Counted from the first letter of the stretch, positions 1,056-7,303 are shown. The stretch: 64,000 bases of DNA from Escherichia coli (GCA_032372955.1 GCA_032372955.1_4725.1), one strand, 5' to 3'. Notes: generated by a model from the sequence alone, not told the origin. Made by a program: numbers and translations.

Positions 1056-3224
1056 ATGCATTATAAAGAAAAACCTCTTTATGAATCTGTGAAGCAGGCA
1101 ATCGCTGAAGGTAAAATCATTCCCATTAAACAGGAGTATACTGGCGTAGGGACTGGACTTAACGGGCTACTGCATTATAACTCAGCACAGCGCGCTGCGA
1201 TGTTTGGTGGACATCTTAGCCAAGCGTTGGTTATCAAAGATGCGAAACCGTCCCGACTGACGACGGGGATCGAATACCAGTACGGACAGAACACGTGGTC
1301 AGTAGAGTTTCCAGTCGAATCTCGCATCATAGATATCATCCCACGTTTCCAACCGGGGCATACAGCAAACAGCATCAAAACAAACACGATGCATTACGTG
1401 CTGTATGAAAACCAAGAGGATGGTAACCGTCACGAGCTACGCTTGCTTGAAGTGCCTGAGCATCACATCATGCATCAGCAGTACGGTTTCCGTTTTCGAC
1501 CAACCAACTTGTTCCATTCCCTTCGTCGAGGCCAGATCGTACCGCGATATTCTCGTTTGATGGAAAGCCCAGCGATCAATCAAGAAACGCGCGAGTGGGG
1601 TTACGGTCGCGATTGCAAAGTGTGTTTCGGTAGCTTCTATCAATGTATCGAGGATGGTGGTGTTGCCCGTCGTGGTGTATTGAAGCATTTCACCAGTACC
1701 GGCATTGAGAAGCGAACGATCACATCAGGTAAATCACGATACCCAATCAATCTCTACGGTGATGATGAGGTATATCAAGCAATACCCGAGAACGGTGAGC
1801 GTATTCGTAAGGATGGGTTGCTTGCCGCAACACGCGAAATCGATCCTATCCTTAGCGTTGTTGACATGATGACGTGTAACCTTCAGCGTGTGGATTATGT
1901 TTACGACGATCTCACTTACGCTGAACCGAATGCGCGTGTAACGGATATCGATGTTGTCAGTGATCGACATCGTCGTTCTGGACGTCAAGCCCGCGAGCGT
2001 GCGATTATGATGGAAGAGAAGATGCGTCCTCCGTATCGTCAATTCCTGAAATACGAGAACGCAATCGGTTTGCTTTACACCCGAATTCAGGATGCTGTTC
2101 GTAAGTACGAACGTGAACGCGTTGGTACGTCGATACGTCATCATCAAACGGTGATGTGGTGGTTGAACCTGGCTGATGCTGAACACGGTATTGATATCCG
2201 CAATCCTAACGGACAGCTACGTCATGTGTTACCAACCCGCGATTACCGTAAAGAGAATCTCGATGATTGGCGTGTGACCATCACGTACACGTATGACGTT
2301 GTTCCAGGTATCGGGTTTAAATTCACCGGTATGGCGGGTGATAAATTCGTTGTAACCGACATCATGGAAGACGATGAAATGCCGGTTGACCAATGGGGTA
2401 ACGTTGCGGACTTCATGTTCGACGATAGTACGGTAATCAAAAGGATGAGTTTAAGTCGTGTTAACGCACCGTACATCAACGGCGTTGGCGATCAGATCAT
2501 GCGTGAACTGAAACCGGTGATGGATGCAGGCGATCTGGAGACCGCTTGGAACACACTGATGCGCTACTACTATATCGTCAGTCCTGAATTCGTGGAACAG
2601 GTTGTTGAAAAATACTGTATCACGGATGAGGATAAATGGGATCATTTACGGTACGTACAACGCCACGGTACGGAAGTTTATATCCCGACGGACAGTATCG
2701 CAGCCGGTTCAGAACGTATGGAGAATCTGATTCGTGAGTTCCCGTTGAAGAAAGGTCCTGTACGGTATCGTGGACGTTCTGGGCAATGGCGGACAACCAA
2801 GAACGATATTGCGATCGGCGACACGTACATCATGATGTTGGAGAAGACGGCGAACGACTGGTCAGCTGTGGGTATTCCTAAACTGCAAGCGCACGGATTA
2901 CCGTCGAAACTCAGTAATAGCGATAAATACAGTTCTCCGGGTAAAGAGCAACCGACTCGTTACTGTGGTGAATCTGAACATCGTGAAGTTACCGCCTTTG
3001 CTGGCGGATGGTTCGCAAGCGTCTTTATGGATTATGCGAACAATCCAAAACAGGTGGATAGCATCACTGAAAGCATCTACGCGACCGATAAGCCGTCAGC
3101 GATTCCTATTGCGACCAACTTCGAGAAGTATCCCATTGGCGGTAACCGTGCGTTGAGGATTCTGTATCATCAGCTGAACGTTGCTGGCGGACAAATCATC
3201 GACGCAGATGACTGCGAAAGCTAA
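1056..3224 (+). CDS. divergent multisubunit RNA polymerase beta-like subunit (C-terminal module)
   Basis: 722 codons from ATG 1056 with AGGAAG RBS (track ORF 891..3224 overlaps the divergent gene). GMAGDKFVVTDIMEDDEMPVD, IAIGDTYIMMLEKTANDWS and GESEHREVTAFAGGWF align by eye to RpoB GDKxAGRHGNKGV..EDMP, GYMYMLKLNHLVDDK and GEMEVWALEAYGA. Confidence 0.6.
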   Translation: MHYKEKPLYESVKQAIAEGKIIPIKQEYTGVGTGLNGLLHYNSAQRAAMFGGHLSQALVIKDAKPSRLTTGIEYQYGQNTWSVEFPVESRIIDIIPRFQPGHTANSIKTNTMHYVLYENQEDGNRHELRLLEVPEHHIMHQQYGFRFRPTNLFHSLRRGQIVPRYSRLMESPAINQETREWGYGRDCKVCFGSFYQCIEDGGVARRGVLKHFTSTGIEKRTITSGKSRYPINLYGDDEVYQAIPENGERIRKDGLLAATREIDPILSVVDMMTCNLQRVDYVYDDLTYAEPNARVTDIDVVSDRHRRSGRQARERAIMMEEKMRPPYRQFLKYENAIGLLYTRIQDAVRKYERERVGTSIRHHQTVMWWLNLADAEHGIDIRNPNGQLRHVLPTRDYRKENLDDWRVTITYTYDVVPGIGFKFTGMAGDKFVVTDIMEDDEMPVDQWGNVADFMFDDSTVIKRMSLSRVNAPYINGVGDQIMRELKPVMDAGDLETAWNTLMRYYYIVSPEFVEQVVEKYCITDEDKWDHLRYVQRHGTEVYIPTDSIAAGSERMENLIREFPLKKGPVRYRGRSGQWRTTKNDIAIGDTYIMMLEKTANDWSAVGIPKLQAHGLPSKLSNSDKYSSPGKEQPTRYCGESEHREVTAFAGGWFASVFMDYANNPKQVDSITESIYATDKPSAIPIATNFEKYPIGGNRALRILYHQLNVAGGQIIDADDCES

Positions 3225-3235
3225 CGAGGTATACG

Positions 3236-5151: not shown

Positions 5152-5296
5152 TGTCGCCGACTTTTACTCCGGCAGTGGAGATATATTAACACCTACATAA
5201 CCTAAGAGAAGGGATTCCCGATGCTATCATGGCGATAGTAAATTCCAACGGAATTGGTAAACCGTATGATAAAACCATTTAAATCGGAAAGTAATA

Positions 5297-7303
5297 ATGA
5301 TTACAACACAGACAACCACCACGAAACGTCGTGTGAGGGCACGCGAGCTTATGCATTGGCCGGTTGATGAGGTGTTCGAATGGGCACAGCCTAATGACCG
5401 TGTGTATATCGAGATGGACGATGGCGTTCATGAATTGCGTGCACGACGCATTTTCTTTAGTTACATGCACTGGTCTGTGCATCGCATGTATCCTGAGACC
5501 CCACTAACAAAAGAGAACCTGGTTGATAAACGCAAGTTCACAGCGGGTTCATCGGTTGCGTTGCAAAGCGCAGCGTATCGTCAATGCATGTATGCTTATC
5601 CACAAGAGAATCGTGAGGTTCTCTGGAAAGCATTGTTCGATATGTTTAACAATGTGTATAACTTCTTTACGTATGCGTTGGAGGAATACGTAACAACGAT
5701 TTGCGCGGACGATTTTTATCAGATTACCGTACACCCCGAAGTTAAGAAAATCATCGCCGAAGCGGAACCCACCCGCGAAGGTATCGAAAGCGCATACAAG
5801 AAACTGACAAAGGTACTGAGCACCGATAAAACGTTACACGCAAACCCTATTGCACGTGCGGTAAGAACCGAACACGTTTCGATCGGACAGGTGCTGCAGT
5901 GTATTGGGATGCGTGGATTCTTGACTGATATTAACTCCGAGATATTCCGTGACCCAGTGATGCGGTCATACGCAGCTGGTTTGATCTCTCTTCCAGACAG
6001 CTTGAAAGAAAGTCGTTCTGCGGCAAAATCGTTGCTGTTCAACAAAGAGCAGATTAAAAAGTCTGAATATTTCGGTCGTGAACTTCAGATAGCGACAGCG
6101 GTTGTACAACGACTCCATCCTGGTGATTGTGGTAGTAAAGAGACCATCCCGATGCCAATCCGTGATGAGACCGACCTGCGTGGCTTCCACGGTCGATTCA
6201 TTATTCGTGACGACGGTTCGTTGGTAGCGATACAACCACACATGAAAGAATTGATCGGCACCACAGTGCGCATGCGCTCTGTTAACTATTGTCATCATCC
6301 CGATCCTGCTGGGGTATGTACGACGTGTTACGGTGAATTAAGTCATAACTTCGCATTGACTGATAATGTCGGCGACGGTGCAGCGCGTACCTGTTCGCAA
6401 CAGGTAACGCAGAACATTCTTTCTACCAAACACCACGATGGTTCGTCAACGGTATCCACAGCACCAATCCCACCGGAATATCAACATATCCTTCGCTACA
6501 GCCAGAACATGAACGACATCAAACTCGCACGTGAGCTGAAAGGTAAACACGTGTTGATTAAGATGAAGTTAGGTCTTGCGAACATGTTGTACGACGTAGC
6601 GGAAGCGGAAGAAATCAGTTCGCTGATACCGCAACGTCTGTTTAACATGACGCTTTGCGATATGGAGATTTACGACAGGAAAGATGAAAGCTATCGTAAG
6701 CTCAAAGTCAATTTCGATTTCTGTGGTCGTCCTGTTGTACCGAGTAAAGCGTTTATCCGGTATCTCAAACGCCATAGCTGGGAAGTGACGTCTGACGGGA
6801 TTGTGATTTTCGACTTGAAACATTGGGACAATTCACGTACGTTATTCCAGATGCCGTTAATCCACAAAAACATGATGGAATACGCAAAAGAAATCGAACG
6901 TGAATTCAAATTCGGGAAAGGTTCTTTCAGTGCCGGATTCCTCTCGGAAGACGAAGCAACACCGGAAGAAGTTGCAAACGTGCTGTACTATTGGCATCGC
7001 CTGTGTGCTCAGCGTCTGCGAATGAACCTTTCGCATCTCGACGTTATTCTCTACGCCAGCATGATTCGTTCACCGCACACGAAAGATTATCGCATGCCGA
7101 AACAGGGAACAACACGATACTTCAGTACCTTCAAGAAGAACATGAACATGCGCTCCTTGAGTATGAAGTTCGCTCACCAAGAGCAGCTGGATGCGTTCCA
7201 AAACCCGAACAGTTATATCCCAACCATGAAGCCGGATCATCCGATCGACTACATGCTGTTACCGCGTAAAGAACCTAAACCGGAGGATGTAATCACGTTA
7301 TGA
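5297..7303 (+). CDS. divergent multisubunit RNA polymerase beta-prime-like subunit (C-terminal module with bridge-helix and trigger-loop-like segments)
   Basis: 668 codons. SAAKSLLFNKEQIKKSEYFGRELQIATAVV resembles the RpoC bridge helix, RLHPGDCG the following DDCGT, VRMRSVNYCHHPDPAGVCTTCYGEL the C-terminal Cys cluster, and RTCSQQVTQNILSTKHHDGS the trigger loop [13 protein letters not shown]. Confidence 0.6.
   Translation: MITTQTTTTKRRVRARELMHWPVDEVFEWAQPNDRVYIEMDDGVHELRARRIFFSYMHWSVHRMYPETPLTKENLVDKRKFTAGSSVALQSAAYRQCMYAYPQENREVLWKALFDMFNNVYNFFTYALEEYVTTICADDFYQITVHPEVKKIIAEAEPTREGIESAYKKLTKVLSTDKTLHANPIARAVRTEHVSIGQVLQCIGMRGFLTDINSEIFRDPVMRSYAAGLISLPDSLKESRSAAKSLLFNKEQIKKSEYFGRELQIATAVVQRLHPGDCGSKETIPMPIRDETDLRGFHGRFIIRDDGSLVAIQPHMKELIGTTVRMRSVNYCHHPDPAGVCTTCYGELSHNFALTDNVGDGAARTCSQQVTQNILSTKHHDGSSTVSTAPIPPEYQHILRYSQNMNDIKLARELKGKHVLIKMKLGLANMLYDVAEAEEISSLIPQRLFNMTLCDMEIYDRKDESYRKLKVNFDFCGRPVVPSKAFIRYLKRHSWEVTSDGIVIFDLKHWDNSRTLFQMPLIHKNMMEYAKEIEREFKFGKGSFSAGFLSEDEATPEEVANVLYYWHRLCAQRLRMNLSHLDVILYASMIRSPHTKDYRMPKQGTTRYFSTFKKNMNMRSLSMKFAHQEQLDAFQNPNSYIPTMKPDHPIDYMLLPRKEPKPEDVITL

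Follow-up and report, generated by a model that had tools for sequence, protein, structure and literature searches.

A Goslar-like jumbo-phage locus predicted to encode the C-terminal beta and beta-prime halves of a split non-virion RNA polymerase

The stretch of DNA analyzed here, 64,000 nucleotides from an Escherichia coli assembly (GCA_032372955.1; hereinafter the window), carries near its beginning two plus-strand open reading frames (ORFs) in which an initial annotation had seen two divergent modules of a multisubunit RNA polymerase (RNAP), one beta-like and one beta-prime-like. We recovered both ORFs exactly where they had been placed and term their products betaC and beta'C (Table 1). 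The RNAP ancestry of both modules stands; their count does not, as these are two subunits of one enzyme rather than two polymerases. They are almost certainly the C-terminal halves of the beta and beta-prime subunits of a phage non-virion RNA polymerase (nvRNAP). In megablast searches Escherichia phage vB_EcoM_Goslar was the only match for positions 1000-7400 (95.2% identity, 100% query coverage), and the entire 64 kb is collinear with Goslar from ~156,820 down to 93,138 at 94-96% nucleotide identity, with the exception of two small breaks and the centre of a tail-fibre gene. Goslar, a jumbo phage of E. coli with a genome of 237 kb, forms a phage nucleus and is placed in the genus Goslarvirus and, in the literature, in the family Chimalliviridae; judged by its sequence, the source of the window is likewise a Goslar-like nucleus-forming E. 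coli jumbo phage of the Chimalliviridae.

Table 1. Features of the window, with positions counted from its first nucleotide (aa, amino acids)
Feature	Positions	Strand	Basis or remark
nvRNAP beta C-terminal-half subunit (betaC), 722 aa	1056..3224	+	Orthologue of Goslar gp171 and phiKZ gp71-73
Beta double-psi beta-barrel active-site motif FKFTGMAGDKFVVTDIMEDDEMP	2316..2384	+	HMMER alignments
Conserved C-terminal beta motifs: IAIGDTYIMMLEKTANDWS (E. coli beta ~1223-1239) and CGESEHRE	2808..3014	+	Alignments
Five small acidic ORFs (homologues of Goslar gp170, gp169, gp168, gp167, gp166)	3236..5151	+	Isoelectric points 4.0-5.0
nvRNAP beta-prime C-terminal-half subunit (beta'C), 668 aa	5297..7303	+	Orthologue of Goslar gp165 and phiKZ gp74
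Bridge helix, aa 232-267	5990..6097	+	Single long helix in AlphaFold2 model; alignments
Zinc-binding site C278, C332, C341, C344	6128..6328	+	Alignment to phiKZ gp74 C288, C341, C350, C353
First trigger-loop helix, aa 358-383	6368..6445	+	Model helices 358-375 and 377-383; aligned to phiKZ T365-V383 and bacterial chains
Trigger-loop insertion domain, ~aa 387-525, beta-rich, phiKZ/AR9 type	6455..6871	+	Boundaries inferred
Superfamily 2 (SF2) helicase, 524 aa	7300..8874	+	Orthologue of phiKZ gp75 and Goslar gp164; phrog_16, E = 1.5e-26
75-codon ORF, Goslar gp102 homologue, bearing QIQPAFLSQFRADYDGDTVTGNSI	44710-44937	+	Only D[FY]DGD in six-frame window translation

In its longest form the betaC frame begins at 891; the Goslar annotation uses the start at 1056, which follows an AGGAAG Shine-Dalgarno-like sequence and leaves the minus-strand gene at 671-1036 free of overlap. 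The protein is 99.9% identical to, and of the same length as, Goslar gp171 (HOV27_gp171). Searches against PHROGs retrieved phrog_3295 ('RNA polymerase beta subunit'; E = 9e-181, aa 24-719), and those against PDB sequences the gp71-73 chain of the phiKZ nvRNAP (7OGP_C; E = 5.7e-86, aa 33-712), followed by weaker matches to the AR9 nvRNAP (E = 2e-17) and bacterial beta (E = 5e-3). HMMER aligned betaC aa 420-601 with E. coli beta residues 1063-1241, including a correspondence of IAIGDTYIMMLEKTAND with VTVGYMYMLKLNHLVDD of E. coli. The peptides that had been quoted as active-site signatures are all present (GMAGDKFVV, aa 425-433; EDDEMP, aa 438-443; IAIGDTYIMMLEKTANDWS, aa 585-603; GESEHREVTAFAGGWF, aa 638-653) and can be aligned with the C-terminal region of RpoB, in the case of GESEHRE only by way of GESETRS of phiKZ and not directly with E. 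coli; GESE of betaC is presumably equivalent to the bacterial GEME. Within the barrel motif, FKFTGMAGDK aligns with phiKZ FKMTDFHGGK and E. coli GDKMAGRHGNK (HMMER), and betaC K422/K430 correspond in the alignment to phiKZ K386/K394 and E. coli beta K1065/K1073. Among 25 homologues K422 is invariant, K430 is at least 90% conserved, and G638, E639 and E641 of the GESE motif are nearly invariant; 24 of 27 betaC homologues contain PF00562 (RNA_pol_Rpb2_6). In phiKZ the equivalent lysines touch the nascent RNA (PMC7618050).

The second protein, beta'C, is 99.7% identical to Goslar gp165 (HOV27_gp165) and equal to it in length. Its PHROG match is phrog_3015 (also 'RNA polymerase beta subunit'; E = 5e-170), and among PDB sequences it found phiKZ nvRNAP gp74 (7OGP_D; E = 1.3e-86, aa 11-654), with weaker matches to the AR9 nvRNAP (E = 1e-13), bacterial beta-prime (E = 1e-4) and E. 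coli beta-prime (E = 3e-2). The segments that the initial annotation had likened to the bridge helix, zinc site and trigger loop of RpoC can indeed be aligned with the bacterial beta-prime chains 8GZG_Z and 8I23_D and with phiKZ gp74. The bridge helix corresponds to L242-Y279 of gp74 and to the bacterial beta-prime ARKGL..SGYLTRRL, and its R261 is invariant among homologues, as are trigger-loop residues K378 and H379; the four zinc cysteines are invariant in 62 homologues. Within the trigger-loop insertion, our model of beta'C has a beta-rich stretch at aa 399-506. Residues 396-533 of gp74 form the trigger-loop insertion in 8QUE_D, that of AR9 is similar, and this phage insertion is not related to SI3 of E. 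coli (PMC7618050).

AlphaFold2 models built with family alignments were confident, with a predicted local distance difference test score (pLDDT) of 79.1 and a predicted template-modelling score (pTM) of 0.70 for betaC, and of 88.1 and 0.74 for beta'C. Foldseek searches of the PDB placed the corresponding phiKZ nvRNAP chain first in each case: 8QUE_C for betaC (E = 1.9e-54; template-modelling [TM] scores 0.75/0.77) and 8QUE_D for beta'C (E = 5e-46; TM 0.86/0.88). Next came AR9 (7S01_C, TM 0.68/0.75; 7S01_D, TM 0.61/0.64), and then bacterial beta (E ~1e-29) and beta-prime (E ~1e-14). The initial annotation had taken both ORFs for C-terminal halves only, of the type known from phiKZ-like jumbo phages, and had proposed profile searches and structural superposition as checks. 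Each came out in its favor: both proteins have significant matches to the phiKZ and AR9 RNAP subunits, the matches to the phiKZ nvRNAP chains run over the full length, the models superpose on these chains with the bridge helix and trigger-loop architecture in place, and the counterparts are gp71-73 (motifs a10-a16) and gp74. In phiKZ, gp71-73 is the beta C-terminal half, with motifs a10-a16 and one double-psi beta-barrel, and gp74 is the beta-prime C-terminal half, to which the bridge helix, trigger loop and zinc site belong (PMC4666361, PMC8287921).

The weak direct similarity to E. coli beta (E = 5e-3) and beta-prime (E = 3e-2) could also be accommodated by rpoB/rpoC-derived DNA of the host, or of another bacterium, captured in a mobile element. 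The jumbo-phage nvRNAP subunits, however, match better by 80 orders of magnitude, tblastn with betaC detected homologues in 308 phage records, and the whole 64 kb runs collinear with a lytic jumbo phage whose genome has genes for tail proteins, ligase and helicase. The nvRNAP best matches and the collinearity with Goslar refute such a capture, to which we assign a negligible probability.

A different reading would make the two ORFs decaying, non-functional RNAP remnants, given their strong divergence from bacterial RNAP, the lack of a Pfam match above threshold, and the presence elsewhere in the window of an RNAP-motif fragment under relaxed constraint (44710-44937; see below). The pattern of substitution relative to Goslar speaks against it: the betaC genes differ at 65 nucleotides and the proteins at one amino acid (ratio of nonsynonymous to synonymous substitution rates [dN/dS] 0.004), and the corresponding figures for beta'C are 72 nucleotide differences and two amino-acid changes (dN/dS 0.007). 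These two ratios are the lowest among 12 neighboring genes for which one could be computed, and betaC and beta'C are under extreme purifying selection. Further, an identical beta'C protein occurs across many genomes of 94-98% identity, the catalytic and structural residues are all conserved, and both ORFs are intact and full-length. Decay is refuted by the selection analysis, and we regard it as extremely improbable.

The preservation of this protein extends well beyond the present assembly. Public assemblies contain the exact beta'C protein in 426 indexed blocks (among them contigs of ~236-242 kb from metagenomes and apparently from bacterial isolate assemblies), and for this reason we consider the Goslar-like phage lineage to be widespread. 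Six sampled contigs with the identical protein have 94-98% DNA identity to the window. Goslar-like phage contigs of ~236 kb also turn up within NCBI assemblies that are apparently of bacterial isolates, for example GCA_961210045.1 and GCA_010391865.1 (AANQMG010000005.1), and in many metagenomes.

Since chimalliviruses encode two paralogous split RNAPs, a pair of beta-like and beta-prime-like ORFs could fit either, and betaC and beta'C might belong to the packaged virion RNA polymerase (vRNAP), which is injected with the DNA and transcribes early genes. The initial annotation had left this question open. We assign them to the non-virion enzyme because beta'C matches gp74 far better than gp80, because the gene order is that of an nvRNAP block, and because the Goslar orthologues are nearly absent from virions. 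Beta'C matches phiKZ gp74 across aa 12-654 (E = 1.3e-95), whereas its match to the virion paralogue gp80 is confined to an 85-aa stretch surrounding the zinc site (E = 6e-4). The order of a gp70-like gene truncated by the window start (1-605), a small reverse ORF (671-1036), betaC, beta'C and the SF2 helicase is also found in phiKZ/KTN4 (gp70, gp71-73, gp74, gp75) and in a marine virome relative; in the window a five-gene insertion separates betaC from beta'C. Finally, Table S4 of a study of Goslar virions labels gp165, gp171 and gp175 'nvRNAP' at 0-0.9 estimated copies per virion (gp171, 0; gp165, 0.17-0.40), as against 8.5-20 for gp196 of the vRNAP, the latter enzyme being composed of gp78, gp196, gp205, gp207 and gp210 (bioRxiv 10.64898/2026.04.21.720040). 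This virion evidence is literature on Goslar proteins that are 99.7-99.9% identical to those of the window. The gp74 versus gp80 match, the gene order and the proteomics together effectively refute a packaged enzyme, which we hold to be highly improbable.

The SF2 helicase, which matches KTN4 gp75 in blastp (E = 1.4e-54), lies downstream of beta'C also in KTN4, in the marine relative and in a relative whose beta'C is 68% identical; it is a conserved neighbor and not an RNAP subunit. Its ATG overlaps the beta'C stop codon (ATGA, 7300-7303), an arrangement that suggests translational coupling of beta'C with this gp75-like helicase.

Comparison with characterized systems places the window closest to Goslar (NC_048170), whose gp171 and gp165 are the same genes, with the same lengths (722/668 aa), neighbors and order, and are labeled 'RNA polymerase beta subunit' in RefSeq and 'nvRNAP' in the virion proteomics table. 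The nucleotide divergence from them is 3.0% (betaC) and 3.6% (beta'C), nearly all of it synonymous, and ~5% across the region; a few sites with small indels also set the window phage apart from Goslar. The phiKZ nvRNAP (7OGP, 7OGR, 8QUE, 9RJS) shows ~28-31% full-length identity (E ~1e-86) and the same fold (TM 0.75-0.88), and its lysine pair, bridge helix, Cys4 zinc site and trigger loop bearing a phage-type insertion all recur in the window, as does the downstream SF2 helicase; unlike in the window, its betaC and beta'C genes are adjacent. The AR9 nvRNAP (7S00, 7S01, 7UM0, 7UM1) has the same split architecture, core fold and a similar trigger-loop insertion but is much more distant (E = 2e-17/1e-13; 14-18% identity in structural alignments; TM 0.6-0.7), and AR9 differs further in being without a phage nucleus and in its promoter-recognition subunit (gp226). 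Bacterial RpoB and RpoC (E. coli beta 1063-1241; beta-prime ~733-947) have homologous double-psi beta-barrel lysines, bridge helix, zinc site and trigger loop, and match the models in Foldseek with E-values of 1e-13 to 1e-29. In contrast to them, the phage subunits are each split into two polypeptides, have no alpha or omega partners and score below the Pfam thresholds; the canonical Pfam definition of RpoB/RpoC, Rpb2_6/Rpb1 above the gathering score in a single full-length chain, does not extend to betaC and beta'C.

Several points weigh against reading the two proteins as parts of a working nvRNAP. Pfam searches gave no relevant match for beta'C and, for betaC, PF00562 (RNA_pol_Rpb2_6) at 16.5 bits, below the cut-off of 23.4; it was the PHROG and PDB sequence searches that decided the family assignment. 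The Pfam results are in keeping with the far divergence from bacterial RNAP noted in the initial annotation. The betaC model has low confidence at aa 598-640, directly before the GESE motif. The partner genes lie outside the window, and we infer the completeness of the enzyme from Goslar. A search for enriched 8-mers between the genes of the window gave only poly-T and no candidate promoter motif. Lastly, what the present analysis itself shows is orthology, conserved motifs, a shared fold and gene order, and purifying selection; assembly, promoter use, timing and nuclear localization are carried over from the phiKZ and Goslar literature, this phage being known from sequence.

With these points in mind, an nvRNAP containing betaC and beta'C may be pictured by analogy with phiKZ, whose enzyme has been purified and solved by cryo-EM (PMC4666361, PMC8287921, PMC7618050) and for which alone a five-subunit, rifampicin-resistant activity has been demonstrated (PMC4666361). 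BetaC would supply one double-psi beta-barrel with the RNA-contacting K422/K430, plus the flap and part of the clamp, and beta'C the bridge helix, the Cys4 zinc site and a trigger loop into which the phage-type domain is inserted. Their partners would be the N-terminal half of beta, that of beta-prime, in which the DFDGD magnesium site lies, and a sigma-like fifth subunit; the resulting enzyme would have five subunits, lack alpha and omega, and be resistant to rifampicin. The gp68-like fifth subunit would occupy the position of sigma and be needed for assembly and promoter binding, and catalysis would follow the bacterial cycle of two barrels, bridge helix and trigger loop. The nvRNAP would be translated from early transcripts and, after import into the phage nucleus, would there transcribe late genes (middle and late genes by some accounts).

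We searched the window for these partners. The short motif ORF at 44710-44937 aside, no other RNAP subunit was detected in it: a PHROG scan of every ORF of at least 220 aa gave none, and tblastn with phiKZ gp55, gp68 and gp80 and phmmer with Goslar gp205, gp206, gp207, gp196, gp210, gp247 and gp175 against the six-frame translation gave no match at E <0.2. The N-terminal halves are thus absent from the window, as had been stated in the initial annotation, the lone ADYDGD ORF being no functional N-terminal half. Placed on the Goslar map, gp175 (homologue of phiKZ gp68, the sigma-like fifth subunit) would lie ~2.3-3.9 kb upstream of the window start, and the nvRNAP beta-prime N-terminal half (HOV27_gp247, beside chimallin) ~13 kb upstream of the same start; of the Goslar nvRNAP partners gp247 and gp175 could be placed in this way, and the gene for the beta N-terminal half was not located. 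Gp78 of the Goslar vRNAP lies beyond the other end of the window.

The betaC/beta'C enzyme is already known, in that the Goslar orthologues are annotated and the phiKZ enzyme is structurally solved. The locus classifies its source correctly as a jumbo phage that transcribes with its own split, alpha-less multisubunit RNAPs, independently of the host enzyme. What the present analysis adds is that both subunits are nearly frozen in protein sequence across widespread Goslar-like phages that differ by 2-6% in DNA, and that a variable island of accessory genes occupies the space between the betaC and beta'C genes.

In phiKZ/KTN4 the betaC gene has an intron inside its most conserved motif (...HGG | K...MEDEDMP), and tblastn with betaC recovers it in two pieces in phiKZ-like phages; the betaC gene of the window, in contrast, is continuous. 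Rfam and tRNA scans of the window were empty, and because of the empty Rfam scan we consider its RNAP genes to be free of introns. In Goslar, group I introns break up the catalytic DFDGD motif in both beta-prime N-terminal-half genes, at GLGGD|FDGD in the vRNAP gene and at NADF|DGD in the nvRNAP gene. In the nvRNAP gene (168,200-170,910), gp247 ends in ...GYNADF and is followed by an intron core, the HNH gene gp186 and an apparent 'DGD' micro-exon, beyond which ~330 nt of additional structured sequence lead up to TTMNNHIVP. In the vRNAP gene (211,570-215,264), gp205, which tblastn identifies as exon 1 of the vRNAP beta-prime N-terminal half, ends in ...GLGGD; there follow gp206, which lies inside the intron and, like gp186, is an intron-encoded endonuclease, the intron core, and a second exon, lacking annotation, that begins FDGDTVSVNVLYS. 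The RefSeq annotation leaves the exons of the Goslar beta-prime N-terminal halves unjoined.

The five small ORFs between betaC and beta'C have no Pfam or PHROG match, and none was RNAP-related in any test that we ran. The homologues of gp170 and gp168 show weak mutual similarity (E = 1e-4); dN/dS relative to Goslar, computed for gp166, gp169 and gp170 only, is 0.06-0.16. A database search with the gp170 homologue returned just six clusters, all Goslar-like. The number of genes at this junction varies, from none in phiKZ and the marine relative, through five here, to 13 in the relative with the 68%-identical beta'C, whose island includes gp170- and gp166-like genes. Goslar gp168 is reported at ~150-340 copies per virion (bioRxiv 10.64898/2026.04.21.720040).

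The remaining RNAP-like sequence in the window, the 75-codon ORF at 44710-44937, has its ADYDGD within FRADYDGDTV, which resembles the beta-prime catalytic loop. A profile of the C-terminal regions of 14 jumbo-phage vRNAP beta-prime N-terminal halves had this ORF as its sole match in the window (E = 2.8e-4, over 24 aa around the catalytic loop), and phiKZ gp180 alone matched it at E = 0.004-0.009. In the whole phage database its matches outside Goslar (E = 4) were, with the exception of one Marinobacter phage record, all to the gp180 gene in phiKZ-like phages. Its dN/dS of ~0.67 indicates relaxed constraint, and it is far too short for a functional beta-prime N-terminal half; it is probably a relic of the beta-prime catalytic-loop region, the site of the group I introns in Goslar, the alternative being chance resemblance. 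An upstream ORF in the same frame (44359-44709) precedes it, with a stop codon at 44707-44709 between the two. One might go further and propose that the betaC/beta'C junction is a clade-specific insertion hotspot, that the conserved acidic proteins of the gp170, gp168 and gp166 families act on the nvRNAP as lineage-specific partners or regulators, or else serve as injected effectors, and that the ORF bearing QIQPAFLSQFRADYDGDTVTGNSI is a relic or decoy of the exon junction targeted by introns in both Goslar beta-prime N-terminal-half genes; taken as a whole, we rate this proposal as unlikely.

Hairpins with a common stem, CCTCC(C)...(G)GGAGG, occur at 10 distinct sites in the window, as against 0.36 expected by chance (638-664, 3658-3686, 4523-4550, 10192-10218, 13913-13940, 15841-15856, 22276-22305, 24572-24588, 39890-39906 and 59227-59250). 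The sites that were compared with the gene map are all intergenic. A role as terminators or in RNA stability is probable, although a T-rich tail follows just one of the hairpins. Sigma70-like sites are not enriched in the window (14 found, 17 expected).

The two small breaks in collinearity with Goslar lie at 20565-21280 and 22695-23358, the first of them in the N-terminal part of an exonuclease-like ORF (20574-21899). In the tail-fibre gene (ORF 54373-58251, Goslar gp090 homologue), positions 55634-57238 are just 65-82% identical to Goslar, with flanks at ~95%, a divergence of the central part that suggests the swap of a host-range module.

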